Virus record (IMG/VR): IMGVR_UViG_3300021426_000003
Coordinates: 39,151-103,150 of that record
DNA from: a virus
Reading direction: 5' to 3' (one strand)
Length of the DNA stretch: 64,000 nucleotides
Below the pieces are notes generated by a model, which worked only from the letters and a program-made list of their open reading frames with translations, was not told where the DNA came from and did no database searches. Made by a program: the position numbers and the translations under genes. Shown piece by piece: positions 13,454 to 40,340 of the stretch (positions within the stretch are counted from its first letter, which is position 1; every line of letters starts with the position of its first letter).

Positions 13454-15004
13454 TTATCCATTTGAACGGTCTCGTTTGTCACGACTAGCTTCTCCGCTGT
13501 CTGTAAGGTCTTCAGGGTCTTTTTTTAAATCTTCTCCACCTACATTACTTGTTGTATGGGAAGACTGAAGAGGAGAAGTAAATATATTTCCAAGTCCTAA
13601 TATATCTTCCTCAAAATGATTCAGTGCCAAAGTTTCTAATTCAGAAAAACCAGACAATGTATTTACAGCAAGTTTTGTCGGAAGAGAATAGGTGGCATTT
13701 TCTAAAAGCTCTTTTCTTAAATCTGGTTTAGTAAAATAAGATACTTCAAAGAATTTAACTCTACAAGGGCTACTAAGATAATAACCAAGAAATCTATTTA
13801 ACCATCCTTGCACTTGAGGCAGAAGAGAAGAGAGTGCCATCTTTGTATCTAATTTAGTTGCTGCTAACAAACCAGTAGTACCTTGAATAGCTTGAGAGTT
13901 AAGCAATTGAGCACCACCACTATTATTCAAAACGTTTTTTGTAGCATTAGATACTTTATTAATATCAGTTGTTTTATTGTCATCAAATGAAATTGTGTCC
14001 AATTTTCCTGGCACTATAGCAGCAGATGTATAATCTGGAATAGCATCTTCACACATTCTGTCAAAATATTTAATTATTAACTCGGGGTCTACTTTCCAAT
14101 CATCAACTTGTTTACCAAGCGTCTCCATGGATAAATAAATCATTTTATAAATATCTTGCTCATCTGCTATAGCTTGAACATTTTTTGTATCTTCTAATGA
14201 AATAATATCATTAAGCAAACCACTAAAAGGCGGGACAATAACCATCCAATCTTCAACGTTATGCTTAAAACATGCTGTATATTTTTCTGGCATTAACATC
14301 CAGCGATTATTAGTTGTATCTTTAAGATATTCCTTATACATAGTAGTAAAAGGCTCGCCCCAATAATCAAGCAAATCTCTGTTTGTGCCATTAAAATACA
14401 TCATATTAAAAGCATATGCAAAATCTCCATTTGTAAATTGTCCGACAATCTTACAATATTCTGGAGGTAATGGCATAATATATAATCCGTCATCATTATA
14501 ATAAGCCACACCATAAAACACATCTTGTGTAAAACAAGTTATAAATATTTTTAGAAAATTGGCTTGTAAACTCATATTATCTAACATAACAGCCGTATCA
14601 TAATAATTTTTTAAAATCTGTTTATCATTATTATTTTGAGTTAAAGAATAACTGGGTATTATACTTCTTGCTCCAAGTTCAAACATACAAGCATTATATA
14701 TAATAATCCTTCTATATGTTTGACTACGATAAAACATATACCATGAAAGATTTCTTAAATTATTTTCGTTACTTCCTATATTTCTTAAATAACTAAGTAA
14801 TTGCTCCTTATCAAAAGTGGCAATTGATTTTCTATAGTTTTTTGTTATATCTCCAAGTTGATGTAACGCATTAATAGCAGTTGTAAAATTATATTTTTGT
14901 TCATCTGAAAACTGCTCTTTAATTTTATTTAATTCTTGCAGATTTATTTGTTTATTTGATGCGCTATTCGCTGCATCGTATTCGGTTGTCTTTCTTCGAG
15001 CCAA
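13454..15004 (-). CDS. putative portal protein
   Basis: 516-aa ORF immediately downstream of the terminase large subunit; call is by position and size only. Confidence 0.5.
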   Translation of the reverse strand: MARRKTTEYDAANSASNKQINLQELNKIKEQFSDEQKYNFTTAINALHQLGDITKNYRKSIATFDKEQLLSYLRNIGSNENNLRNLSWYMFYRSQTYRRIIIYNACMFELGARSIIPSYSLTQNNNDKQILKNYYDTAVMLDNMSLQANFLKIFITCFTQDVFYGVAYYNDDGLYIMPLPPEYCKIVGQFTNGDFAYAFNMMYFNGTNRDLLDYWGEPFTTMYKEYLKDTTNNRWMLMPEKYTACFKHNVEDWMVIVPPFSGLLNDIISLEDTKNVQAIADEQDIYKMIYLSMETLGKQVDDWKVDPELIIKYFDRMCEDAIPDYTSAAIVPGKLDTISFDDNKTTDINKVSNATKNVLNNSGGAQLLNSQAIQGTTGLLAATKLDTKMALSSLLPQVQGWLNRFLGYYLSSPCRVKFFEVSYFTKPDLRKELLENATYSLPTKLAVNTLSGFSELETLALNHFEEDILGLGNIFTSPLQSSHTTSNVGGEDLKKDPEDLTDSGEASRDKRDRSNG

Positions 15005-15014
15005 AGCGCACCTC

Positions 15015-16775
15015 CTATAATGTTCTCATATTTAAACGTCCTTTTTTTATAGTTAATCTTTCTACTAAAGATTGAGTATCTTCATAATGGGGACGTAGTT
15101 GTAATTCTAATTGTGAAGCACACCAGTAATTATAAGCGATAGAAGAGTATCTATCCTTCCTACAACCTGATGGTTCAAATACGGTTATTTTATTGTTTTT
15201 AATATAATATTTTAATTTAACCAATTCATATACACCTAGCGTACATTGAGCATATGGCATTTTCATTCTGGCTTGTTCCATTGGGGTCATCTTTTTAAAT
15301 GATTTATATTCTTCAGCAATTACTTCATCTGCATTTTGTTCTGGAATTAAAAAATTAATTCTACCATTGTTAATGGCATTTCTTAACAATACACAAATTG
15401 TATTATTAAAATCAGCTGTTGCTTTTACTGACCACACCACCCTCAAGGCGTTAGGAACTTTACATCTAGCAGCCATTTCATCATTATTACAACAGCTTAA
15501 TGCTCCATATACTTCTCCTGTCTCTGGGTCATACTGGTCTTTAGCTATAAAATCTGCTATACCTAAACCTACTCCATTGGTATCAACTACTAAGTCGGTA
15601 CATTTGTACTTATAAAAATATCTCATTATTATTATTCCTAATTCATCAGTAGTTAATCCTTCAAAATTCTCTCCATAAACAAAATTAGATTGGTAAGTTG
15701 TAGTAGTAGTTCTTATAGCATCATTTATATAAATAGATGAAGCATCATTTTTCTTTTTGTTTGTTGATGCCATAAGTGCAATATCTACAGACATAATTCT
15801 TTTACCACCAGCAGGAGGATTGGGTATTGAAAATTTCTCATTATAATAATCTAAAGGATAAAGACAATGTTTAACTCTTCTTATTTTATTTAAAGAATCA
15901 AATTTAAATAATCCACCTTCAGTATCTCCATACCATAAACATTCATCTTCCATCGAAAAAGCAATTTCATTAAAATCTGCTTCAGACATTTGGTCTTCAA
16001 CTTGTCCTCTATCCAACAAATGCTCTCTAATAGATAATTGATATGGAAGTCCGCATATAAAGTATTTTTGTTTATCACTAAAAAAATTTGCAGTATAAGT
16101 TTGAGCTTTGGTATACGCCCATGAACTTTTAAAATATGCAGATGATAAATACAATTCTTTGTTTCGTTCTATTAAATGAGCATATTCTGGTTTATCCAAA
16201 TATTTAGGATGTCTAGGAGCTTTTAAAAATTCTCTTATAACACTATCAAGTATTTTTTTATCTACCATTCTAAACTCATCTACAACAATTATATTAGCTC
16301 TGGCAGAACGAGAGTTTTCAGTACTAGTTCTTGTTTTAATCCAAGACCCCCCTTTAAATCTAATAGTTGCATCATTTTGCCCTATTTTCATTTCTTCAAT
16401 ACAAGATTGAAGAATAGGAGAGTGTGGATATATTTCATCTTGAATTTTTAAAAGCACTTCATTTGCTTGTTTTAATGTTGCTGATGTTACTACAATTTTA
16501 CTATTAGGATATAAAATACATCTACACACACAAAACACCGCAGTTAACCAAGTTTTTCCAGCACCACGGGCAGCAATATACATAAAATAATTATAGTGCA
16601 TCATTGCCCAGATAAGAATTGCTTGAAACCATTTTAAATTTATATTTAATATATCTTTACAAAACCTTTGAGGATTAGCACGATAATAACCAGCTCTCCA
16701 AGCTATAGTCTCCATTATTTTCTGAGACTTTTCTTGCTCAAGTTCTTTTATATTTTTTTTATTTTCAACTACCAT
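15015..16775 (-). CDS. terL: terminase large subunit
   Basis: Walker A YIAARGAGKTWLTAVF and Walker B IIVVDEF in the N-terminal ATPase; 586 aa; followed by the portal gene. Confidence 0.8.
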   Translation of the reverse strand: MVVENKKNIKELEQEKSQKIMETIAWRAGYYRANPQRFCKDILNINLKWFQAILIWAMMHYNYFMYIAARGAGKTWLTAVFCVCRCILYPNSKIVVTSATLKQANEVLLKIQDEIYPHSPILQSCIEEMKIGQNDATIRFKGGSWIKTRTSTENSRSARANIIVVDEFRMVDKKILDSVIREFLKAPRHPKYLDKPEYAHLIERNKELYLSSAYFKSSWAYTKAQTYTANFFSDKQKYFICGLPYQLSIREHLLDRGQVEDQMSEADFNEIAFSMEDECLWYGDTEGGLFKFDSLNKIRRVKHCLYPLDYYNEKFSIPNPPAGGKRIMSVDIALMASTNKKKNDASSIYINDAIRTTTTTYQSNFVYGENFEGLTTDELGIIIMRYFYKYKCTDLVVDTNGVGLGIADFIAKDQYDPETGEVYGALSCCNNDEMAARCKVPNALRVVWSVKATADFNNTICVLLRNAINNGRINFLIPEQNADEVIAEEYKSFKKMTPMEQARMKMPYAQCTLGVYELVKLKYYIKNNKITVFEPSGCRKDRYSSIAYNYWCASQLELQLRPHYEDTQSLVERLTIKKGRLNMRTL

Positions 16776-26226: not shown

Positions 26227-27387
26227 TTATTTTTTATCATCCATATGAAGCTCCTTCAAAATCTTAACATTCTTAACTAATGACTCAATTAAATTTTCAA
26301 CATCTTTTTCTGTAGTATATTCATCAAAACTTATTCTAATAGTAGAACGAGCTTCATCATCTGTAAGACCAATTGCCTTTAAAACTCTGCTAGGAACATT
26401 TTCTCCAGAGGAACAAGCGCTTCCAGCAGATACAATAACCCCATCCAAATCCATAAGAGTAATTAATTCTTGAGCAGGAATATTCGGAATCGTCAAACTA
26501 ATAATATGTGGAGAACAATATTCACCATTTTGCTTAATCCCCTCAATTATTTTATTACCATCAATAAGACCAAGTTTTTTCTTAATCGACCAACTCGTAT
26601 CAGCAATATTTTTTAATCTAAGAGCTTTTGTTTTTTTAATTTCTTCAAGACGATTTCCCATTGCAGTAATTAAATAACTTGGTTCAGTTCCTGCACGAAG
26701 ATTATTCTCTTGATGTCCACCTGTTAATAATGGCTGTAATTTAATTCCTTCTTTTACATATAAAAATCCACAGCCTCTAACACCACCAAATTTATGAAAA
26801 CTGGCAGATAACATATCAATACCCATACCTTGAACATCTATATCCCTATATTCAATAGCTTGTGTAGCATCCACTAATAGACGTCCTCTATACTGATGAA
26901 CCAATTTTGAAATCTCATAAATATTTTCAGTAGAACCAATTTCATTATTAACATATGAAACACACATAAGTTTTGGGTTAGTAAAAGTATAATTTGTTTC
27001 AATATACTTTAATACTGCTTCAAACTTATCTAAATTAATTTGCCCTCCAGAAGATACGGGTACATAATAATTTCCAACGCAATAAGACCAACCCATAGTT
27101 TTATAAATAGAAGGGTGGTCAATAGCAGAACACATTACAATATCCCAATTACTTCTCATAACAAGATTATTACTTTCGGTTGCACCCGATGTAAAAATAA
27201 TTTCTTCGGGCTTACAATTAATATAATCAGCAACTTGTCTTCTTGCATGTTCAATTTGCAATTTTACTTTTCTGGATTCTTCAGAAGTGGAAGAGGGATT
27301 ATACCAGTAATCCCTCATACCTGTTTCTATATCTTTAATAACTTGTTTTGTCGGCTTAGTAGTAGCCGCACAATCAAAATATGCCAT
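26227..27387 (-). CDS. cysteine desulfurase (class V aminotransferase, IscS/NifS-like)
   Basis: PLP-lysine context SASFHKFGG and active-site loop VSAGSACSSGENVPSRVLKAIG (compare IscS [21 protein letters not shown]). Confidence 0.85.
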   Translation of the reverse strand: MAYFDCAATTKPTKQVIKDIETGMRDYWYNPSSTSEESRKVKLQIEHARRQVADYINCKPEEIIFTSGATESNNLVMRSNWDIVMCSAIDHPSIYKTMGWSYCVGNYYVPVSSGGQINLDKFEAVLKYIETNYTFTNPKLMCVSYVNNEIGSTENIYEISKLVHQYRGRLLVDATQAIEYRDIDVQGMGIDMLSASFHKFGGVRGCGFLYVKEGIKLQPLLTGGHQENNLRAGTEPSYLITAMGNRLEEIKKTKALRLKNIADTSWSIKKKLGLIDGNKIIEGIKQNGEYCSPHIISLTIPNIPAQELITLMDLDGVIVSAGSACSSGENVPSRVLKAIGLTDDEARSTIRISFDEYTTEKDVENLIESLVKNVKILKELHMDDKK

Positions 27388-27399
27388 AATTAATTCTCC

Positions 27400-27597
27400 T
27401 TAGTATAAAGGATTATAATCGTTTATATTTAAAATTTCACTATCGTAAATATAATCCTGTATTGCAATTTCTACTCGCTGATGCAAATCTTCAGAAATAT
27501 CCTCTAAATCAACGCATGATTTTGGTTTAACAGCTTCACACAAATCCATAACTAATATTTCAAAATTTAAACCATCACTAAATGAAATCTTACTCAA
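27400..27597 (-). CDS. hypothetical small acidic protein
   Basis: 65 aa, translationally coupled between the radical-SAM and desulfurase genes. Confidence 0.35.
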   Translation of the reverse strand: MSKISFSDGLNFEILVMDLCEAVKPKSCVDLEDISEDLHQRVEIAIQDYIYDSEILNINDYNPLY

Positions 27598-28499
27598 TCT
27601 TTTTCCACTTCCTCTCTAATAATTTCAAACATCTCGTCAATAGTCTTGTCCCCAATAGGATATGTAATAGGGGACAAACTACTTCTTGCAAATACACCCT
27701 TAACTAAATCAATAAAAAAAGTTACAGTCCCATCGTCACCACCATAAAACATATTCCATTCTTTATCGCTAAGTCTGTCTTTGATATGTAACTGCTCAAT
27801 GGCAAGATTATCAAAACTCACAATCTTAAACCCATTGATAACCTCATCAAGTCCACCTTCAAGATATTTCATCTGAGTAATGATAGGTATAAACATACCA
27901 TCATAATATTTTTTACCCCTACCAGTTTTCTTATATCCAAGAATTAGGATTTTTAAACCATGCCCCATAAGATACTGAATATCTTCCCAAGGTGTAATTC
28001 CAGCAATAACATGAATTATAGCGTTTGGATATTCTTTTACTTTTTCAATAAACCCTTCCTGCCTTGGATCTGTAAGAGAAATACCAATCCCTTTAATATA
28101 TCCCTGCCTAATCCACACATTCATCTGTTTTCTTACATCATCGTCCATAAAATGATTCTGATTAATAGTCACATTGCAGATGATATGATGATGATTCATA
28201 AGGTATAAGAACGTGCTAAAATCGGGATGAACAGGCTTCTGAAGATTAATTGCAATTTCCGTGTAAGGACGCATTGAGCCAAAGAAACGCCAACCTAAAA
28301 TCTGACCATGTCTACCAGTGGGAGAACATCCGTAATAACACCACTCACATCCATTATCGCAACACTGTGAAACTTGCACATCCATAGATTCTGGGAAGTC
28401 AAACTTGAACTCATCATCCATTGTGAAGTGTTCTTTTGTACCATCTTCATAAATAGTTGTGTATGTATTACCATTCTTATATGTAGCTATTCTTTTCAT
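27594..28499 (-). CDS. radical SAM protein (QueE-like CX3CX2C cluster)
   Basis: VSQCCDNGCEWCYYG contains C-x3-C-x2-C with an aromatic residue before the third Cys, as in B. subtilis-type QueE CDYSCSWCD; 301 aa. Confidence 0.6.
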   Translation of the reverse strand: MKRIATYKNGNTYTTIYEDGTKEHFTMDDEFKFDFPESMDVQVSQCCDNGCEWCYYGCSPTGRHGQILGWRFFGSMRPYTEIAINLQKPVHPDFSTFLYLMNHHHIICNVTINQNHFMDDDVRKQMNVWIRQGYIKGIGISLTDPRQEGFIEKVKEYPNAIIHVIAGITPWEDIQYLMGHGLKILILGYKKTGRGKKYYDGMFIPIITQMKYLEGGLDEVINGFKIVSFDNLAIEQLHIKDRLSDKEWNMFYGGDDGTVTFFIDLVKGVFARSSLSPITYPIGDKTIDEMFEIIREEVEKD

Positions 28500-31496: not shown

Positions 31497-32480
31497 TTAT
31501 TCCTCTTTACTTTCTTTAGGAGATGAATTTATATCAAGCATTGGGACAGAATTCCCTCCAACTACAGAAGGTCTCCAATTCCCAATAGATTCAGCTTGGA
31601 CTCTTTCAACATCAATTCGTTTTAATTCAATAAGTTCTGGTGTTAAAGATTCTGCTATTTTTCTATTAGATTCAGCTTCAGCCTCTGCTGCAATTCGTTC
31701 TCTTTCAGCCGCAGCTTCTGCTTCTTGCTTTTTTCTTGCAATTTCTGCATCAGATTTAATCTTTGCTTCTTTTGTTTCAGCTTCAGCATCTGCAAGTTTC
31801 TTTTCATTTATATATTTAGCATTTTCTGCTTCAAGTTTAGCGAGGTCTCTTTTTTCAAGAGCGGCGTTATACTCTTCGCTAAAATCCATATTGCCAATAT
31901 TAACAGAATTAACTGTAAGGACTGATTCTTTATAATACTTATTAATTTCTTCCTGCAAATATTTAAGTGTGAGAGGTTCAATATAACTTCTATTTGTCAC
32001 TTGGTCATTAGGAAGTTCTACGGCAGCACGTTTAATAGCAGTACTAATAATACTTCCTTTTAAAAGTCTATAATCCCATTCTTCAACATTAGACCAAATC
32101 CAAGCTGCTTTTTCTGAATTAATTTGAAAACTAATTCTAATGTTTTCCGCATATACAGGGGTTCTTTCAGAACTTTCTCCCCAAATCTTATCTTCATATT
32201 TTGTATCCTGTTGTTTACAATTTATTTTATCTACATGATAAATAATAGGAATAGAAAAATATTGCCCAGAAGGAAGTACTTCTCCCGAAATCTGACCATA
32301 TGTTGTTTTAATTCCTACATACCCACTTGGGACAATAACAATTGAAAATCCCCAAATAAACAATACAGCTCCTAAAACAAATCCTATAACTCCAAATGCT
32401 TTTCCTTCATCAATTATTACCAACCACGCAACAGATATTCCTAAAATAATCAGACCAATAATCACCAACAATAATTTCAT
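31497..32480 (-). CDS. SPFH/band-7 (stomatin/prohibitin/HflKC-like) membrane protein
   Basis: N-terminal TM segment, band-7-like core, and a C-terminal Ala/Glu/Lys coiled coil (EAEAAAERERIAAEAEAESNRKIAES). Confidence 0.7.
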   Translation of the reverse strand: MKLLLVIIGLIILGISVAWLVIIDEGKAFGVIGFVLGAVLFIWGFSIVIVPSGYVGIKTTYGQISGEVLPSGQYFSIPIIYHVDKINCKQQDTKYEDKIWGESSERTPVYAENIRISFQINSEKAAWIWSNVEEWDYRLLKGSIISTAIKRAAVELPNDQVTNRSYIEPLTLKYLQEEINKYYKESVLTVNSVNIGNMDFSEEYNAALEKRDLAKLEAENAKYINEKKLADAEAETKEAKIKSDAEIARKKQEAEAAAERERIAAEAEAESNRKIAESLTPELIELKRIDVERVQAESIGNWRPSVVGGNSVPMLDINSSPKESKEE

Positions 32481-32512
32481 ATTAAATCCTCCTTTTGTAT
32501 ATTATATGTAAT

Positions 32513-33043
32513 TTATCTATTAATCACATTAAAATGACAATGTTCCAATATATCTAATGCTTTTTCATGCCATTCTGGAGTAGACCCAGCACAGCAAGCT
32601 GCATCAATAGTGATAGGAATATTAGGGAATGCTGCTTTCAATGTCATAGCATTTGCTAATATACAGAAGTCAGTGTCAAGTCCTACTATTTCTACTTCTG
32701 TAATATCTTTAACTAAAGATCCGTCAGGGTAAGGGTATCCAAAAGTTTCTTTTTCTATATAAAAAATATTATCACGACTTAAATAACTGGATATTAAATT
32801 TAAAATATCTTCATGTATTTGCCATCCTTTTGTTTTATAAAGACAATGTTTAATAGGAAGATGTTTTCCTTCTTCTGTTTCTAAGTAATCAGTATGATGA
32901 GTATCTTGAGTTAAAACAATAAAATCAAAATTGACATTTTTAATTTTTTCTACTACCTTAGGTACAATAGCTTGAGCTTCGGGGCTACCTAATACTCCAT
33001 CAATAAAATCATTCTGCATATCAATTACAACTAAAAGCTTCAA
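32513..33043 (-). CDS. pncA: isochorismatase-family cysteine hydrolase (nicotinamidase/pyrazinamidase-like)
   Basis: VVIDMQNDF N-terminal motif and VGLDTDFCILA catalytic-Cys context typical of PncA/isochorismatase. Confidence 0.7.
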   Translation of the reverse strand: MKLLVVIDMQNDFIDGVLGSPEAQAIVPKVVEKIKNVNFDFIVLTQDTHHTDYLETEEGKHLPIKHCLYKTKGWQIHEDILNLISSYLSRDNIFYIEKETFGYPYPDGSLVKDITEVEIVGLDTDFCILANAMTLKAAFPNIPITIDAACCAGSTPEWHEKALDILEHCHFNVINR

Positions 33044-33085
33044 ATAAATACCTCCATATATATTATATACATGTTAGCATTAATA

Positions 33086-33325
33086 TTAAAGATTGTCAAG
33101 GTCTATTGGAGTAGCAGGAGATTTACCCCATTTCATCCAATATTCTGAACACTGTGATAGAGTACAATTCTTGTCTTTTGTTCTTTCAAAGTTTTCACAC
33201 AGGTCACAACCAGTTCGATGAACAATAAAAAATGCGAGTTCTGCATCATTCATTTTTCGTACCATATCAAAATTGGTTTCTTGAATTGGAATAATTGTAT
33301 GTTTGTCTTTTTTAAATTTCTTCAT
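33086..33325 (-). CDS. hypothetical small protein
   Basis: 79-aa ORF with CDLCENF...CTLSQC cysteines. Confidence 0.35.
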   Translation of the reverse strand: MKKFKKDKHTIIPIQETNFDMVRKMNDAELAFFIVHRTGCDLCENFERTKDKNCTLSQCSEYWMKWGKSPATPIDLDNL

Positions 33326-33507
33326 TCGTTCACCTCTTTATTTAACCATACGATAGTAGCTTCTACGGCATCTTCAAATATAAACCATTCAATTCCTGAT
33401 GGGTCTGCGTATACATCATTACCATCTATATCTTGTCTTACAAAAGTAACAAGATATTCTGCCAAATCATAATCATCTAAATTAAATAAGTAGTCTTTAT
33501 TTATCAT
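33322..33507 (-). CDS. hypothetical small protein
   Basis: 61-aa ORF, coupled overlaps. Confidence 0.3.
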   Translation of the reverse strand: MINKDYLFNLDDYDLAEYLVTFVRQDIDGNDVYADPSGIEWFIFEDAVEATIVWLNKEVNE

Positions 33508-33709
33508 TTCTTTTCCTCCGTTTACTAAGCTTAAGATATTGTCTAATATCAGTTTCTTTTAATGCTAATATTTTTTTAGATTTATTTTTATCATAAATCC
33601 TAACTGCTTGAATCTTATCAATCATTGTGTTATCAAGATTTACCGAATTGTTATTCATTGGGGCAGTACCGATTAAATCAATCCGTATCTTTACCTGTTT
33701 CTTCTCCAT
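33497..33709 (-). CDS. hypothetical small basic protein
   Basis: 70-aa ORF, K/R-rich C-terminus. Confidence 0.3.
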   Translation of the reverse strand: MEKKQVKIRIDLIGTAPMNNNSVNLDNTMIDKIQAVRIYDKNKSKKILALKETDIRQYLKLSKRRKRNDK

Positions 33710-33917
33710 TTAAATACTCCTGTTCTTTTTGTTCTAATTGAAGCTGTTTCTTCCTATATTTATGTAGCCTGTTTGCCAAGCACCAATCACACCCCCCATG
33801 ACATCTGCATGAGGGGTCGATTGCTTTAGAGCCACGATATTCTTTCCTATACTCTTTATGATGTTGAATTCCTTTATCTAAACTCATTTTTTCTTTCATG
33901 CTCCAATTGCAAATCAA
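33678..33917 (-). CDS. hypothetical Cys-rich small protein
   Basis: CRCHGGCDWC cluster; 79 aa. Confidence 0.35.
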   Translation of the reverse strand: MICNWSMKEKMSLDKGIQHHKEYRKEYRGSKAIDPSCRCHGGCDWCLANRLHKYRKKQLQLEQKEQEYLNGEETGKDTD

Positions 33918-34152
33918 AAGCGTAGAAAAACAGTGTTCTTATATCTTCTGATATTTTTAATAATTTGTTATATTTTGTTTCATAAAGAGCATAATTATTA
34001 TCGCTTATATTTGTAATCTTAAAACGCCAAAAAGAAGAAGCATCACATCTCCAATCTATTTTTGCTGTTTTTTCTTTAGGTTCATACCATTGCATTTTAT
34101 TCTCCTGTATTAAATATAATTGTGCCATCTTTAAGCTCACTATTAGAAACAA
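33874..34152 (-). CDS. hypothetical small protein
   Basis: 92-aa ORF in the compact small-gene array. Confidence 0.3.
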   Translation of the reverse strand: MFLIVSLKMAQLYLIQENKMQWYEPKEKTAKIDWRCDASSFWRFKITNISDNNYALYETKYNKLLKISEDIRTLFFYAFDLQLEHERKNEFR

Positions 34153-34420
34153 TTTTAATTAAATAATCATATATATATTTATTATCTGCTGTTGAAGTCA
34201 AAGGATTAATCTCTGATTCAATTGGAGTATTAAATAATCTAAATAACCAATTATATGTATTATCATTCATATTAATCGATTGGATAAAAATACTATTTTT
34301 TTCACAATCATTAATTGATTGAAGAATCTTTTTTGCAAGACTGGGTACATATCCAGAACAAAAATAATAAGATGCAGGACAGTGAATATTTTCATTAAAA
34401 GTAATTGATGTATTATTCAT
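34097..34420 (-). CDS. hypothetical protein
   Basis: 107-aa ORF with a strong GGAG RBS. Confidence 0.35.
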   Translation of the reverse strand: MNNTSITFNENIHCPASYYFCSGYVPSLAKKILQSINDCEKNSIFIQSINMNDNTYNWLFRLFNTPIESEINPLTSTADNKYIYDYLIKIVSNSELKDGTIIFNTGE

Positions 34421-34440
34421 ATATAATATCTCCTTATTAA

Positions 34441-34761
34441 TTATTCATCTTCATCTTCATCTTCGTAATCTTCATCTTCATCCATGAACATACTGTATTC
34501 TTTTTTTGTAGGAACTATATCTTCTGTACCATCTTTCTTTTTTCTTACTCTGAATATTACTGTTGATTTATCTTCGGGGAAAACCAGAAGGTCTAATGCG
34601 TTTACTGGTTCTTTTGGCTGCTTACCCAGACGAAAAGGATAAAGAGCACAATCTGTGTCTAAACATTTCTTTACTTCTTTGGTTGTAATTGAACACTGTC
34701 TGCATTTAGCAATAATTGCTGTTCTGTAAGTAAGTTTCTTAAAAGGTTTTGTTTCTGTCAT
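34441..34761 (-). CDS. hypothetical protein with a poly-acidic C-terminus
   Basis: 106 aa ending DEDEDYEDEDEDE; starts MTETK with the same first 19 nt as the next gene. Confidence 0.4.
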   Translation of the reverse strand: MTETKPFKKLTYRTAIIAKCRQCSITTKEVKKCLDTDCALYPFRLGKQPKEPVNALDLLVFPEDKSTVIFRVRKKKDGTEDIVPTKKEYSMFMDEDEDYEDEDEDE

Positions 34762-34768
34762 TTTTATA

Positions 34769-35293
34769 TTACTCCTCTTCAGTGTATGCTTTTATTTCTG
34801 TAACTTCGCAATAACCATTATCTTCAAAATCTAAATCCATTACTAAACCAAAAGAATCATATTGGTCATTTTCATTAATAACACAATATACATTTGTTAC
34901 CATATATTTATTTTCTAAAGGTATATCATTTATAGTATTGATTTTTACAAATTTTATAATATATTCAAAATCATTTCTGTTAAAAAATTCATTTTGTTTG
35001 AATAATTTTATTAATTCATCATATGCAATTTTGAAGGTAGGATATTTTTTTGCTTCTTTAAGTGTTCCAACTTCATTAGGAGCAGAACATATTTTATTTC
35101 CGAAACAATCTATTTTACTTGTTGTATTATTACCATCATAAAAACCATCATCTCTCCATTTTTCATTATAATCAAGAATTATATATTTGTATTTTCCACC
35201 TTCTTGAGGAGGTTCATCAAGCCATTCTTCAATAAAACCAAATACATAAAAACTCTGCATGTTTTGTTTTTTTAAAAGTTTTGTTTCTGTCAT
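34769..35293 (-). CDS. hypothetical protein
   Basis: 174 aa; start MTETK duplicated; coupled to the nucleotidyltransferase gene. Confidence 0.45.
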   Translation of the reverse strand: MTETKLLKKQNMQSFYVFGFIEEWLDEPPQEGGKYKYIILDYNEKWRDDGFYDGNNTTSKIDCFGNKICSAPNEVGTLKEAKKYPTFKIAYDELIKLFKQNEFFNRNDFEYIIKFVKINTINDIPLENKYMVTNVYCVINENDQYDSFGLVMDLDFEDNGYCEVTEIKAYTEEE

Positions 35294-36324
35294 TAAACTA
35301 CTCCTTCCTGATATAATACAGTTAAATTGGCATCATATAAAAAATCATTAATTCGTTTATAATCAGGGTTATCTGGAAGAGGAGAGTGGTCTTTTAAATA
35401 ATTTAATTTATTTTCCATCTCATCAACAATATCATAAAACTCTTTAGTAGGTTGTTTATCATCATCCAAATACTTACCATTTCTAATATCCATTAGGAAA
35501 TCATGTTCTTTTTTTCTATATGTAATAATCTTACCGTCTTCAAGAATATCAAAGCACATAAGATATAATCTAATAAGATGCATCATATGTTTGCTTAACT
35601 TATCATGCTCAATGGCTTTTGAATTACGTCTTCCAATTTTAGAATAATCTTTAACAATATTCTGCATCTCTGACCACATAGATTTATAATCCCTAAGTGG
35701 ATAATGTTTTAAATTTATATCCATAAAAATTTCTGTATCATAATCTTCTTGGATAGCTTTATCAATATAAAGCTTAATAGAATCTTCTGGATAATTAAAA
35801 TATTTATCTGGATAAGAATATCTTGCATTTTCAATACTTGCTAAAATATGTTTTTCTCTTTGCTCCTGTTCTACTGTACGAACAGCTTTATTAGATAATC
35901 TTCGAAGTTGTGCAGTAGCATAACCACCGAATGAATGGGCAGCTCTTTTAGATAGAAACATATCTTTATTTTTAATAAGCTCTTGACCAATATAACCTGT
36001 ATATAAATACTGCCAAGGTTCAAGACCTAAAATTTCAATTGTATTAGGATTACAATTGGAAAGAAGATTAACAATCTTTTCAAGAGAATAAACAGTTGTA
36101 TCAGTAGCTTCATTAACAACCTGTTCAAAACCTTTTCTTGTAAGAATATCTTCTGAATTATGAGTAGCCACACCTCTGATATCCAAATCACTGTTTTCAG
36201 TATTAGTGCCATAAGCATAGCTGCCACCAAGTCCTAATAGAATAATATTGTTGCCCAATGGTTTTTCTTTTAAAAAACTGTATTCAGAAGAAGCAATTTT
36301 ATTTTTAATTTCTTCAATTGTCAT
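35293..36324 (-). CDS. Pol-beta-superfamily nucleotidyltransferase
   Basis: GLGGSYAYGTNTENSDLDIRGV matches the hG[GS]-x9-13-Dh[DE]h NTase signature; 343 aa with a helical C-terminal domain. Confidence 0.6.
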   Translation of the reverse strand: MTIEEIKNKIASSEYSFLKEKPLGNNIILLGLGGSYAYGTNTENSDLDIRGVATHNSEDILTRKGFEQVVNEATDTTVYSLEKIVNLLSNCNPNTIEILGLEPWQYLYTGYIGQELIKNKDMFLSKRAAHSFGGYATAQLRRLSNKAVRTVEQEQREKHILASIENARYSYPDKYFNYPEDSIKLYIDKAIQEDYDTEIFMDINLKHYPLRDYKSMWSEMQNIVKDYSKIGRRNSKAIEHDKLSKHMMHLIRLYLMCFDILEDGKIITYRKKEHDFLMDIRNGKYLDDDKQPTKEFYDIVDEMENKLNYLKDHSPLPDNPDYKRINDFLYDANLTVLYQEGVV

Positions 36325-36444
36325 TTAAATACATCCTCCGCATTCTCCATAACGCCAATCCTGTGAATTGATTGCTGTATAAATTTCTTTTTGAATAATA
36401 AGGTCTGTTGAAATTTTATTTAACCATTCTTTATTTTCTTTAAT

Positions 36445-36657
36445 TCATTCATCACAGAATAAACCCTCTTCATATGAATCCCATACTTCCTGCCAGTTTA
36501 CAAAATGCCAAGACCTATATGTATTATATGTATTCATTGGTTCATTTCTTAATTCGTTTGGAATTAAATAAGAAACATCTTTATTATTTACTTTTAAAAT
36601 CCATCGACCCGAACAAAGATTAGGATAATCACCTGTCCATTTAGCTTCTACTTTCAT
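36445..36657 (-). CDS. hypothetical small Trp-rich protein
   Basis: 70-aa ORF. Confidence 0.35.
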   Translation of the reverse strand: MKVEAKWTGDYPNLCSGRWILKVNNKDVSYLIPNELRNEPMNTYNTYRSWHFVNWQEVWDSYEEGLFCDE

Positions 36658-36878
36658 CTTGTAACCTTTCTTATAACTATTTGATTATCTATATCAATAT
36701 TGGCTTCACATGTAGTATCTAAACAATCTTTTCTACAATGAGAGTATAATGGTAATCTATCTTCTTTAGGAAGAATAATATTTAAAATTATATCCCTTTC
36801 ATTTGGACATGAGTTTAAATAATACATCTTATCTTTAACTTGTTTTGCAATTTTTCTTCTTAATTTCTTTTTATCCAA
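36654..36878 (-). CDS. hypothetical small Cys-containing protein
   Basis: 74-aa ORF, coupled. Confidence 0.35.
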   Translation of the reverse strand: MDKKKLRRKIAKQVKDKMYYLNSCPNERDIILNIILPKEDRLPLYSHCRKDCLDTTCEANIDIDNQIVIRKVTR

Positions 36879-37332
36879 TTGTTGTAAACCTCCAAAGGTA
36901 TCTATAAATTTTAGAAATTATATTATTTAATTCTTCCTTTGTATTTTTATATATAAACAATTTATCTATTTCCTCTTTATACCAAGGATGAAGAGAAGAA
37001 TAATTTTCTTCTGGAATCATACCTATAATTGGTTTATTTAATGTATATGCATACATCATTTCCTGAGCAGTACCAATAGAAGAGAATGAATTAAAATTAA
37101 TTATTATTATATCTGAGTGTTTAATCCAATAGAGGTCATATTTCATTGCTTCTTTTTCGTATAATTGGTCTGAGTTATTTGAAGGTGTATATAAATATGT
37201 TGGGTCTATAAAAATAAAACCATTACCTTCGTGTACATTTTCCAATTTAAATCCTGTTCTCCAATAAGAAGCTTCTTCTTCTGTTAAACCTGTCATTCCT
37301 CCACTAAGAAAGACTTTTAATTTATCTGACAT
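36871..37332 (-). CDS. nucleoside 2-deoxyribosyltransferase-like protein
   Basis: VFLSGG ... SIGTAQEMMYAYTLNKPIIG matches the SGT-x-E-x-G-x-A-x-x-KP signature of the NDT/DNPH1 family. Confidence 0.55.
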   Translation of the reverse strand: MSDKLKVFLSGGMTGLTEEEASYWRTGFKLENVHEGNGFIFIDPTYLYTPSNNSDQLYEKEAMKYDLYWIKHSDIIIINFNSFSSIGTAQEMMYAYTLNKPIIGMIPEENYSSLHPWYKEEIDKLFIYKNTKEELNNIISKIYRYLWRFTTIG

Positions 37333-37489
37333 ATTTATTTGTTCCCTTTCTTTTACAAAAATCTACACAGTCATATTTAATTGAATAATAAATTAAATAA
37401 AAGAGAGCAGTAATAAAATATTTCGATATTTTTGTTTGCAGAGCAAAGTCTGAATAATTTTTATAAAGTACTGTATATTTATATCCCAT

Positions 37490-37855
37490 TTAAACCTCCT
37501 CTGGATATTCTTGATATTGGACTGTAAATAATTTTGTTGTTGATGGCTCTTCATGATATTCAAATGTGAATTGAGTATCATATAAAAATGATTGTACATT
37601 GTTAATTACAATTTCTTTTTTATTTATTTCAATATTATATTTACATATATCATCATGAGTAAAAGACAAGTATGCATTACGATGAGTAAATGTACAATCA
37701 TGAAAAATTATTTCTGAATAATGTGTCCTGTGGTTTTTATCAATAAAGGGAATATTATAAAAAATAATCATATAATGCTGAACATTTTTTTTTGATTTAC
37801 GAGTTGAAATAATTTTAATTTTAGTTGCTTTGGGAAGTAAGTTAGTATTTATCAT
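37490..37855 (-). CDS. hypothetical protein
   Basis: 121-aa ORF; the overlapping 37393-37599 ORF is less likely. Confidence 0.35.
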   Translation of the reverse strand: MINTNLLPKATKIKIISTRKSKKNVQHYMIIFYNIPFIDKNHRTHYSEIIFHDCTFTHRNAYLSFTHDDICKYNIEINKKEIVINNVQSFLYDTQFTFEYHEEPSTTKLFTVQYQEYPEEV

Positions 37856-37867
37856 ATTAATCCTTTT

Positions 37868-38158
37868 TTAAAAACAAATATAAATAATGAAAGTTACTAC
37901 TACTGAAACAAGAAACAGGATATAAAAAAATACTCTAATTTTTTCTATAGCCTGAAAGAGAGCAGTGAGTTCTTCCTTATAATAATAATGTTCTGAATAT
38001 GATGGGGAGTTTGTATTAATTTCCCAAATACTAAGATTAATATAAGAAAAAATTTCTGCTATAGCTAGGATAAGCAATGTTGTTATGGTGGATAAAAATT
38101 TTAAGTTCATGTGTACCCCCTCCTGAGGTATGTGATTTGTGGTGCGGTTGGTTAACAT
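37868..38158 (-). CDS. small membrane protein
   Basis: 96 aa with two hydrophobic helices; last gene of the minus-strand block. Confidence 0.4.
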   Translation of the reverse strand: MLTNRTTNHIPQEGVHMNLKFLSTITTLLILAIAEIFSYINLSIWEINTNSPSYSEHYYYKEELTALFQAIEKIRVFFYILFLVSVVVTFIIYICF

Positions 38159-38227
38159 TTATAAACATGTAAATAATATACATGATTTAATTATATGGGT
38201 TTAATCGGAAAAGTCAAGAGGATAGGA

Positions 38228-38312
38228 AAGAATATAGTAAAGAATATAGTAAGAAGAATATAAAATATTTAATGTGGATAAAGTGGATAGAGTGGATAAG
38301 TTTGTGGATAAG
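38228..38312. promoter_or_regulatory. origin-like element: tandem 12-bp repeats plus four DnaA-box-like 9-mers
   Basis: AAGAATATAGTAA twice (38228-38252); TGTGGATAA (38274-38282 and 38304-38312, the exact reverse complement of TTATCCACA) plus GTGGATAG and GTGGATAAG, all in one orientation about 10 bp apart. Confidence 0.5.
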
Positions 38313-38697
38313 TTAGAGAAATTTAAAAGAATTTTAAAGAAATTGACGAAAAGATAGGCGAGAATTGGGAGATGGGGGATTGAGTGATTAAATATGTAAA
38401 AATAATTAGTGTTGTGTGGTTTAAGGGGCGACCCGGTCGCTAAAAAAATCCTTTATTTATCAGGTTTTTCCTACCCCGGTACGGATCATTTTTACTCCTC
38501 AATTTTGACTTCCAAAAATCCGTATTTTTGGCACTTTTCGAGGATCGCTGCGCTGGAAAAAACGAACAGATGTACGAATTTGCCTCAAAATCCCAATTTT
38601 GCCACTATGCGACCAGCTCGTTCGAGTGGCACGGACGGGCACACACACAGACATGCCACACAAGCCACGGCGCTAAAGCGCAGAGAGGAGAAAAATC

Positions 38698-39270
38698 ATG
38701 GCAAACAAGAACACAGGCAACACACAGGTACAGGCAATCGCAATCGCACAGGCAATGGCAATCACGCAAGCTATGCTTGCGTTGGATGCGTATCGGACAT
38801 CGCTCCTCGCGTATGCAGATGCGGACGCACATGAGGATCGTGAGCGCATGAGCATGTACGCATCACTCGGCAAGGGCGAGCGCAAGGCAGTGTGGAACGC
38901 ACTTGTGAAAGCGGGCTTTCCCGTAGGGAAAGCTGTGCTTCCCAAGACCGAAGCAGCAGCGCCTGCGCCCAAGCAGTCACAGACTCCTACGGAACGTGCT
39001 GGTGAGGTGTGCATGTGGGTACGTGATGGCGCATACGTGAGCACTGCCACCGCAGGTGGCAAGTTCGTTGGTCGCAGTGGAATCCGCAAGATTCTCAACG
39101 CTCGCATCCGTAAGGCGGGTGGCACATACGACAAGGCGCACAAGGCGTACAAGTTCCCGAACGAGCAGAACGCCATTGACTTCGTCAATGCTACATCCGC
39201 TACGGTCACGGACGAGCAGTTCCGTGAGTACATGGGCACACTGGAGCGCAAGCACAATGAGAAGGCGTAA
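38698..39270 (+). CDS. hypothetical protein encoded by a GC-rich foreign cassette (190 aa, Ala/Lys-rich)
   Basis: AGAGGAGAAAAATCATG RBS; about 60% GC versus about 30% in the flanks; followed by a strong terminator; upstream TTGACT with a TCCAAAAAT/ATTTTTGGA palindrome. Confidence 0.55.
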   Translation: MANKNTGNTQVQAIAIAQAMAITQAMLALDAYRTSLLAYADADAHEDRERMSMYASLGKGERKAVWNALVKAGFPVGKAVLPKTEAAAPAPKQSQTPTERAGEVCMWVRDGAYVSTATAGGKFVGRSGIRKILNARIRKAGGTYDKAHKAYKFPNEQNAIDFVNATSATVTDEQFREYMGTLERKHNEKA

Positions 39271-39284
39271 GCCTTCTCGAGGTT

Positions 39285-39322
39285 CACAGTCGGGCTTCGG
39301 CTCGGCTGTGATCCTTTTTTTT
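39285..39322 (+). terminator. intrinsic terminator with a UUCG tetraloop
   Basis: 11-bp stem CACAGTCGGGC/GCTCGGCTGTG (two G-U pairs) with a TTCG loop, then ATCC and T8. Confidence 0.7.
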
Positions 39323-40340
39323 GTGCCTTTGAGCCCCTTGTTGATCATATGCTTATCGAAATTTTGTATAAGCATGTGATGAATAAGGGCTTCAAAAAAA
39401 CGCCCTATATGCATATACGAATCAGATAATATCGCATATGTCTGGTGTTGCAAGTCACCAATCATTTCTACTTGCGTTTTTCAAAATCGGGTCGGTCAGT
39501 ACTCGTTAACCACTGACAAAGAATAAAACCGTTATAATCGAAGGCTTTTATGTCAGCTACCTACACCGTAACGGTTACATATTGCAAAATGTATTGTGTT
39601 ATAACAATGCTCAATCAAAAAAAGAGCCAAGGACACAAATATGTCTCCAATATTTGTGATTGCAAAAACATGCACAATTCAACTTTAGAAATCTTAAGTG
39701 CCTTAAAGGTAGGTGATAGATTGCTAAGTGTATGAATATCCTGCTCAAAGAAAGGAGGTGAGAGCGATATAACACAATCCATAACATTGCAAGTTGACGA
39801 TTGGTCGGAATCAATCAATCCCTTTAGGATTTGTCCTTGTGAATGTTATTCTTGCCGTATGTACTTCCGTTAGAGAGGCATGGGTCAAAAGACTGGCGAT
39901 TAGTCGAAGGTGACAAGGGAGTAGGAGCTCCACTCGGTTATAGTCCTTCCGCAAGATAGTCAGAATGGCTTGGCACAACTTACCAAGGCTGACTGATAAA
40001 GGGGCGGTACTACAAAAGTGACCGAGAATAAAAAATAACAGGCGACTGGACAAACCTGTTATCAAACTGGCATCTGTTGAGACTAAAACTAAAAATTAGA
40101 CTCAACTGCGTATACTTAGTAACTCGCAAGGGTAAGTACCTTGGGGAGCAAAGACGCACAGTAAGGAATAAGTCCACTAAACAATTGATTTATTCGGCAG
40201 ATGAATAAAGATATATGTAATAAAAACATATATATAATAAAACACCTAATGAATAATAAAATTGCTCTTATGGCTTGTGTGTCTTTCTTGTCAAGGGGAT
40301 AGAGTAGCGGTTGCAATAAGTACATACAAGTACATTGTTG

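Follow-up and report, generated by a model that had tools for sequence, protein, structure and literature searches.

Three neighbouring enzyme genes of a large low-GC phage are probably independent accessory genes rather than one NAD counter-defence module

NARP1, which consists of Adps (PRPS-like) and Namat (Nampt-like), recycles the products of nicotinamide adenine dinucleotide (NAD) cleavage (bioRxiv 10.1101/2024.02.11.579819), and the accessory published for it is a macrodomain phosphatase, not RtcB. NARP2 consists of Nampt and Nmnat, and NARP3, according to the abstract and outline of its report, of a PnuC-like transporter and a NadR-like enzyme (PMC13464706). The genes pncA, pncB, nadD, and nadE have been described in gut jumbo phages as auxiliary genes (PMC11662467), and a phage Preiss-Handler cluster places PncB, NadD, and NadE beside PncA. 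In a 2025 preprint, two bacterial RlaP enzymes, PfRlaP and PaRlaP from Pseudomonas, were shown to extend damaged RNA at its 3'-OH by one or two nucleoside monophosphates (NMPs) and to help restore cleaved tRNA, and T4 NrdC.11 is a member of the same family (PMC12776372). Here, we analyzed a 64,000-nucleotide stretch of viral DNA (positions 39,151 to 103,150 of the IMG/VR record IMGVR_UViG_3300021426_000003; hereafter the window), which carries genes for a nicotinamidase (PncA), an RlaP-family Pol-beta nucleotidyltransferase (NTase), and a protein with the fold of nucleoside 2-deoxyribosyltransferases (NDTs) and DNPH1 (hereafter the NDT-like protein). An earlier note on this DNA had read the three as a single NAD/nucleotide counter-defence combination; the three open reading frames (ORFs) were found at the positions it gave, all on the minus strand. 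We consider it probable that the three enzymes are independent accessory occupants of a leftward gene block and not one NAD counter-defence module.

The window is large low-GC phage DNA (GC ~0.30), identified as phage by its portal and large terminase genes (13454-16775), and it contains two tRNAs. GC skew and the ORF map showed that genes point leftward up to ~38.2 kb and rightward beyond. Close relatives occur among contigs of gut and rumen metagenomes with lengths of 132-151 kb, from which the phage genome was estimated at roughly 145 kb. A megablast search of positions 32000-38000 against 50,697 phage records gave zero matches, and no cultured GenBank phage is similar at the DNA level. Because a tblastn search of the phage records with the NDT-like protein gave no match and a first IMG/VR scan was also empty, relatives of this protein were drawn from the protein database and from metagenome contigs. 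The lineage sample comprised 14 distinct collinear relatives anchored on the NDT-like gene, each with ~10 kb downstream, and the lineage loci fetched cover ~20 kb each around this region. An unbiased lineage sample from IMG/VR, anchored on a backbone gene, yielded two loci only. For PncA, 336 IMG/VR loci with a homologue were found, and the best 80 of these were examined.

No NAD partner gene of PncA was found in the 64 kb of the window. Queries for Adps and Namat (from Phage Phass-1), for PncB, NadD, NadE, and DUF5662 (from locus L035), and for RtcB, the macrodomain, and ATP-dependent ligase gave no tblastn match in the window or the lineage loci; the Adps-Namat pair that defines NARP1 and the three Preiss-Handler partners of PncA are thus missing from the window. 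The NAPRTase and Pribosyltran families were not found among the window ORFs screened with Pfam, and the window gave no NAPRTase-family or cytidylyltransferase-like match corresponding to NARP2. The 86 further window ORFs searched with Pfam matched eight families only (HU, ClpP, DUF932, tyrosine recombinase, YodL, GP88, RadC, and DpnD/PcfM), among which neither of the two NARP3 families, as given in its abstract and outline, was present. The jumbo phages with NAD genes likewise come from gut or rumen and carry a phage pncA (PMC11662467), whereas the window PncA is a solitary one-gene cassette in a phage that is, at ~145 kb, not a jumbo phage. Since NAD partner genes are lacking in the window, the nicotinate produced by PncA would have to go to host Preiss-Handler enzymes.

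The presence of the NTase and PncA genes was compared across the 14 lineage genomes. Both genes occur in three genomes (the window, with L087 of the same type, L112, and L113), the NTase only in seven (L084, L090, L099, L101, L111, L114, and L115), PncA only in two (L083 and L085), and neither in two (L100 and L116). The NTase is therefore present in 10 and absent in four of the 14, and no association between the two genes was detectable (Fisher p=0.58). Two features of this comparison weigh against the reading of independence: 14 genomes give low statistical power for the NTase and PncA, and the table, being anchored on the NDT-like gene, is no test of the independence of that gene, on which only L110 and the PncA-anchored set bear. 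L110, a locus anchored on a backbone gene, is without all three enzyme genes, and of 80 other PncA-bearing phage loci, eight have the NTase and two the NDT-like gene at a distance of up to 10 kb from PncA. Other relatives have unrelated ORFs, an HNH gene, or two Dam methylases in the same slots. Relatives whose NDT-like and PncA proteins reach just 54-75% identity have an NTase that is 89-97% identical, and compared with L112 the synonymous divergence (dS) of the NTase is 0.31, against 0.68-0.87 for its neighbours. The lower dS and higher identity indicate that the NTase was exchanged separately and are consistent with a more recent exchange. These results indicate that the grouping of the three genes is not beyond chance and that they do not co-vary among relatives.

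The ratio of nonsynonymous to synonymous divergence (dN/dS) over all three genes was 0.06-0.47, which corresponds to purifying selection. This range, together with catalytic residues that are intact and invariant in all three proteins, speaks against the idea that they are decaying passengers without current function, to which a fresh nonsense mutation in a neighbouring PM0253-like gene might lend some colour; we give this idea almost no credence.

The joint model of the earlier note held that the three enzymes form a new NAD/nucleotide counter-defence set, distinct from NARP1 and NARP2, in which nicotinamide salvage might, for example, be combined with remodelling or destruction of nucleotide immune signals. 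The three genes do share a strand, lie within 4.8 kb of one another, and have the best promoter-like site found for the block close by, and in other phages the PncA family is linked to the rebuilding of NAD. The eight loci with RlaP close to PncA, together with 15 PncA-Adps-Namat operons in which RtcB is embedded, show that RNA-repair and NAD genes do share neighbourhoods, and the NDT fold has relatives among N-glycosidases for which cleavage of nicotinamide mononucleotide or NAD is conceivable. Against this, all four classes of NTase and PncA presence occur with the Fisher result given above, the PncA cassette is a clean one-gene indel, characterized RlaP enzymes work on RNA 3' ends, and the NDT-like gene is near PncA in just two of the 80 loci. 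A PADLOC scan also gave no meaningful match for any gene of the region, the three enzymes included. The proposed combination was therefore not borne out, and joint action seems to us highly improbable.

The PncA gene (32513..33043, minus strand) encodes a PncA-type isochorismatase-family hydrolase of 176 amino acids with a TTG start. The protein matched the Pfam family Isochorismatase (PF00857) over residues 3-174 with E=4.1e-17 and 63.2 bits (cut-off 27), and its best match in the Protein Data Bank (PDB) was Pyrococcus horikoshii PncA (1IM5). Residues D8, K98, and C127 aligned with the catalytic Asp-Lys-Cys of 1IM5, and D47, H49, and H66 with its metal ligands (DxH...HC motif); all six were invariant in 37 homologues of 42-86% identity. 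An Asp-His-His metal site sets nicotinamidases apart from other isochorismatase-family hydrolases. More than 2,300 database clusters matched the window PncA at E<=1e-10, many of them on contigs of 140-153 kb, and dN/dS relative to the relatives was 0.10-0.32. The 'nicotinamidase' of Phage Phass-1 (OQ749652) belongs to the same family and has the same active site, with 39% identity to the window PncA. The complete active site indicates that the 176-amino-acid protein is most likely a genuine nicotinamidase, and the call of the earlier note is well supported on this point. Enzymes that cleave NAD, bacterial NADase defence effectors among them, release nicotinamide; PncA would convert it to nicotinate and ammonia by way of a Cys127 thioester at the Asp47/His49/His66 metal centre.

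What counts against this assignment is the curated PncA equivalog model NF008623 of NCBIfam, to which the window PncA scored 20.8 bits with a cut-off of 174; a score so far under the cut-off indicates a divergent, phage-borne PncA subfamily. This subfamily also has an extra invariant CAG motif (C151-A152-G153) in its C-terminal part and an invariant His159. The low score, these extra residues, and the solitary state of PncA here would also fit a role other than NAD rebuilding, in which nicotinamide is removed for another reason (for example, relief of product inhibition of NAD-consuming phage or host enzymes, or starvation of a nicotinamide-dependent host route) or in which a different amide is hydrolyzed. 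The complete nicotinamidase triad and metal site argue against such a role, as do the near-universal partners of the family, which are nicotinate-consuming NAD enzymes; we regard it as quite unlikely.

The PncA gene lies in a cassette of ~561 bp (32495..33055, minus strand) flanked by a short ATATAATATA-like repeat. Base-level alignment with L111, L099, and L101 showed that the cassette is a clean single-gene indel that is missing from the PncA-less relatives and has a conserved promoter-like sequence on one side and the ribosome-binding site of an SPFH gene on the other. The promoter scan placed a sigma-70-like promoter, TTGACA-N17-TAACAT overlapping TTAATA-N16-TATAAT, at 33062..33099 on the minus strand. 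In L111, L099, and L101, this sequence is conserved and directly abuts the SPFH ribosome-binding site; it is predicted to drive PncA and SPFH here and SPFH alone in the PncA-less relatives. The SPFH gene (31497..32480, minus strand) encodes an SPFH/Band 7 membrane protein of 327 amino acids (PF01145, 2.9e-10; phrog_200) downstream of the PncA slot and is considered here as context only.

The NTase gene (35293..36324, minus strand) encodes a protein of 343 amino acids and behaves as an accessory cassette. The protein matched the Pfam family RlaP (PF10127) with E=7.1e-22 and 78.7 bits (cut-off 23) and, over its full length, PHROG 388 (phrog_388), annotated 'nucleotidyltransferase', at 4e-52; a PDB sequence search gave only a marginal match to MntA. 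The motif GGSxAYGx5SDLDxRG and a downstream TDT were invariant over homologues of 46-97% identity, and the catalytic G33-S34...D46-L-D48 and the third carboxylate D74 were likewise invariant. The dN/dS of the NTase was 0.06-0.21, and RlaP homologues, which are frequent among large phages, were found in 264 phage records. Compared with PfRlaP, PaRlaP, and T4 NrdC.11, the NTase keeps the Pol-beta motif and the third carboxylate, whereas no RNA ligase, RtcA, or polynucleotide kinase (PNK) adjoins it in the window, RtcB being absent by tblastn, and activity of the phage branch is predicted only. A Clostridioides difficile phage, AR1086-1, also has an RlaP homologue without an adjacent RNA ligase or PNK, with kptA 5 kb away; amidoligase-like, DUF1653, and pentapeptide-repeat genes adjoin it. 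Because characterized RlaP enzymes act on RNA 3' ends (PMC12776372), the NTase is assigned by analogy to RNA repair and not to NAD metabolism or nucleotide signalling. The enzyme would extend the 3'-OH of damaged RNA by one or two NMPs, which would allow a ligase, supplied by the host or encoded outside the window, to restore cleaved tRNA; its role would likely be to counter host ribotoxins.

The NDT-like protein (153 amino acids; 36871..37332, minus strand) is encoded by a backbone gene of the lineage. Its ORF scored 25 bits against DUF4406 (cut-off 22) and 26.6 bits against Nuc_deoxyrib_tr (PF05014), which is just under the cut-off of 28.8. Among 84 family members, 70 matched Nuc_deoxyrib_tr (PF05014), 58 Nuc_deoxyri_tr2 (PF15891), and 36 DUF4406; at E<=1e-3, the family extends to 892 representative clusters, mostly stand-alone proteins of ~140 amino acids. 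W24 and E91 are invariant across the 84 sequences, and G11, R25, P44, S85, G87, T88, H115, and W117 are near-invariant. The family profile found the NDT 7M5H at 6.6e-7, followed by YtoQ, MilB, and DNPH1. An AlphaFold2 (AF2) model (pLDDT 92, pTM 0.88) had DNPH1/Rcl, NDT, and MilB as its top Foldseek matches (E~1e-6, probability 1.0, TM 0.6-0.72) and also matched phage proteins annotated as NDT. The family calls of the earlier note were thus right at the superfamily level, as judged from Pfam, PHROG, and structure matches. E91 aligned with the nucleophile Glu of 7M5H, and in the profile comparison with 7M5H, S85 stands where NDTs carry Asp. In an alignment with a DNPH1 sequence, E91 and S85 coincide with its Glu and Ser, which is a lead rather than a test.

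The window protein shares with DNPH1/Rcl and the NDTs the fold, the nucleophile Glu, and an Asp66/Ser85/Glu91 pattern. It differs from them in being only 13-20% identical to the solved structures, in having Phe8 for the catalytic Tyr, and in W24, H115, and W117, which are invariants specific to its own family. A Tyr in the N-terminal strand beta-1 has a catalytic role in NDT and DNPH1; Phe8 is invariant in the NDT-like proteins of this lineage, and the consensus of the wider family at this position is Tyr. Ser85, as in DNPH1, points to a nucleoside 5'-monophosphate substrate, and the NDT-like protein, with Glu91 as its nucleophile, is most likely an N-glycosidase acting on such a substrate, as far as residues and model can tell. 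The dN/dS of the gene was 0.29-0.47. A distant member of the family (37% identical) in L128 (6001-12429) lies near an adenylosuccinate-synthetase homologue (possibly PurZ-like), a dUTPase, and a thymidylate synthase, a context that hints at a role in the deoxynucleotide pool for the family.

The PncA family was found at the head of NAD operons in other phages. Seventy-two of the IMG/VR loci extend 5 kb or more downstream of the PncA homologue; it heads such an operon in 71 of these, and PncA is alone in a single one (L047). Two operon types were observed, in which PncA is followed either by Adps-Namat-NadE or by DUF5662-PncB-NadD-NadE. The first type, PncA-Adps-Namat-(139-amino-acid ORF)-NadE, is complete in 55 of the 80 loci and ended by contig ends in seven more (62 of 80 in total). 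The second, a full Preiss-Handler set, occurs in 10 of the 80, with partial variants in six; the uncharacterized DUF5662 gene always lies between PncA and PncB (for example, L035 9950-13645 and L049 9995-12312). The annotated Phage Phass-1 carries the PncA-Adps-Namat-NadE arrangement, and its 'Nampt' matches the Namat crystal structure 9W5X (PMC12774641) at 2.6e-105 and true Nampt at only ~1e-43. The link to NAD suggested by the earlier note therefore stands for the nicotinamidase, whose family heads NARP1-like and Preiss-Handler operons, and falls for the other two genes.

These operons raise the possibility that the window PncA works with phage Adps, Namat, and NadE or with phage PncB, NadD, and NadE encoded outside the window, in a complete dispersed nicotinate pathway that does not rely on the host. 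Such partners are present in 71 of the 72 other loci, under half of the ~145-kb genome is visible here, and an SPFH gene ~7 kb downstream of PncA in L004-type loci hints at shared ancestry of the neighbourhood. In other phages, however, the partners are immediately adjacent and not scattered, no partner was found in the window or in any ~20-kb lineage locus, and PncA is gained or lost as a single gene in this lineage. We therefore think a dispersed pathway unlikely.

The Namat-like genes beside PncA in the related loci, all outside the window, differ from published Namat at one position. Asp215 of Namat hydrogen-bonds nicotinamide (PMC12774641). At the position equivalent to Asp215 of the reference SpbetaL1 Namat, the 56 PncA-adjoining Namat-like genes among the 80 loci and Phass-1 have Ala (36 and Phass-1) or Ser (20) in 57 of 57 and never Asp or Glu; they are followed by NadE. 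The TRD motif is kept in these PncA-linked variants, as is at least one of the aromatic residues that form the selectivity clamp for ADP-ribose pyrophosphate (ADPR-PP). By contrast, position 215 is Asp or Glu in each of eight canonical two-gene Adps-Namat pairs, with neither PncA nor NadE found within 4-5 kb of any of them; these pairs belong to phages of Staphylococcus, Bacillus, Mycobacterium, Bacteroides, Listeria, Vibrio (ICP1), E. coli, and Pseudomonas. NadD is present in the PncB-type operons and never in the Adps-Namat type, and NadE ends both. In human Nampt, replacement of the equivalent residue, Asp219, by Ser reportedly allows the use of nicotinate. The change at Asp215, the missing NadD, and the terminal NadE suggest that PncA-Adps-Namat-NadE without NadD is an undescribed deamido variant of NARP1 (hereafter deamido-NARP1), although the Asp215 pattern could alternatively reflect a single old clade with no functional switch. 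Examples are L001 10001-14439 and L004 10001-16763, and loci L003-L082 generally.

In such a pathway, PncA would convert nicotinamide to nicotinate, Adps would convert ADP-ribose to ADPR-PP, the Namat variant would combine nicotinate and ADPR-PP directly into deamido-NAD, making NadD unneeded, and NadE would convert deamido-NAD to NAD+. PncA, NadE, and nicotinic acid are mentioned neither in the NARP1 (bioRxiv version), Namat, Adps, RyDEP, and aRES papers nor in the abstract and outline of the NARP3 report. Several of these operons hold additional genes: in 15 loci, Adps and Namat are separated by an RtcB-like RNA ligase (1.7e-16 to 4DWR; for example, L004 11366-12571), a macrodomain precedes NadE in 28 (L004 14279-14731), and a 424-amino-acid ORF with a KxNG ligase motif, recognized by eye, follows NadE in 15 (L004 15489-16763).

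Taken together, we picture the region as the promoter-proximal and highly exchangeable part of a long leftward block, in which a conserved backbone of small genes would offer slots for swapped accessory genes; the three enzyme genes are probably all expressed early without belonging to one pathway. The conversion of nicotinamide to nicotinate is a recycling step missing in many bacteria, and NadD and NadE are near-universal. The nicotinate made by PncA would then be used by host PncB, NadD, and NadE to rebuild NAD+. By its association with NARP1-type operons, a counter-defence role of PncA against NADase systems is plausible. We suggest, as a tentative possibility, that the lone PncA is a minimal form of nicotinate-branch NAD+ reconstitution, supplying only the first step of deamido-NARP1 and leaving the rest to host PncB, NadD, and NadE, as a one-gene counter to NAD-depleting immunity. 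On the opposite side of the balance, enzyme substrates are predicted from family and active-site residues, and Phe8 in place of the catalytic Tyr could change the chemistry of the NDT-like protein. The host would need to have PncB, and the window covers ~64 kb of the ~145-kb genome, so partner NAD or RNA-ligase genes could lie elsewhere.

The remaining genes of the region are small. The earlier note had spoken of tiny ORFs, and small ORFs are indeed present; they are not noise but real genes, most of which are 50-96% identical at the protein level in related phages. Phass-1 belongs to a clade using genetic code 15, and stop-codon recoding was considered as a cause of the small ORFs; it was rejected because no suppressor tRNA is present, stop usage in the window is TAA 77, TGA 23, and TAG 4, and the small ORFs are kept as such in relatives. 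Between the NDT-like gene and the NTase, all on the minus strand, are a small conserved ORF of 74 amino acids (36654..36878; 65-100% identical in relatives, no Pfam or PHROG match) and a truncated copy, of 70 amino acids, of a 110-amino-acid 'PM0253'-family gene (36445..36657; phrog_20678, 3.9e-15), which was assigned to PF27390 via its homologues. The truncation results from a TGG->TGA nonsense codon at 36445-36447, upstream of the NTase; in L087 (97% identity) and L111, a W codon (TGG) stands here and the reading frame runs on for 40 more codons. The stop would reflect a nonsense mutation of recent origin or an error in sequencing; recoding of TGA as Trp was rejected, since TGA commonly serves as a stop here and L087 has TGG.

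Downstream of the NTase on the same strand, a 174-amino-acid ORF without a family match (34769..35293) overlaps the NTase stop with its start; it is independent of the NTase, as L116, which is without the NTase, has a 94%-identical copy. It is followed by a 106-amino-acid ORF (34441..34761) whose product has a Cys-rich motif at the N terminus and ends in an acidic tail; this ORF is kept in all relatives at 49-100% identity and in L033 lies between the NDT-like gene and PncA. Six small conserved ORFs of 61-107 amino acids (33086..34420), mostly 55-100% identical in relatives, complete the run; they gave no family match, two having been scanned against all four libraries and the others against Pfam only.

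The best promoter-like site of the leftward block (38190..38217, minus strand), TTGACT-N16-TATAAT with 11 of 12 positions matching, was found by the promoter scan in a divergent intergenic region. Direct repeats in this region (38220-38335), AAGAATATAGTA in two to three copies and GTGGATAA/G in four, look like iterons or operator sites. To the right, 38580-39790 has a GC content of 0.49 within the 0.30 of the phage and holds a 190-amino-acid ORF without a family match (38698-39270, plus strand), followed by a strong terminator (39284-39311). In L087, which is 96-98% identical, a different 1.2-kb segment replaces 38580-39790, and its 174-amino-acid ORF shares a C-terminal motif only; the segment at 38580-39790 has the appearance of a rapidly evolving gene at the start of the rightward arm. 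The right arm (39550-63886) encodes DUF932, YodL, RadC, DpnD/PcfM, GP88, and tyrosine recombinase proteins, a set typical of the leading regions of conjugative elements, and a weak ParB_N-domain match lies nearby in the relative L115; a plasmid-like or temperate lifestyle of this phage is possible. The stretch 26227-28499 encodes a class-V aminotransferase resembling cysteine desulfurases (PF00266, 7.7e-53) near a PHROG 'Fe-S oxidoreductase' gene, a pair kept in all relatives and in the distant NDT-bearing loci L105, L106, and L127.

The apparent NAD/nucleotide cluster is thus best read as three separately exchanged accessory genes of known kinds, and closeness within a phage early region is therefore no proof of a shared pathway. 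The nicotinamidase family marks nicotinate-directed NAD+ rebuilding in gut phages. If the Asp215->Ala/Ser Namat variants make deamido-NAD, NARP1 would have a second chemical branch, and a single phage gene such as the window PncA could then link the nicotinamide released by NADases to the pathway of the host.

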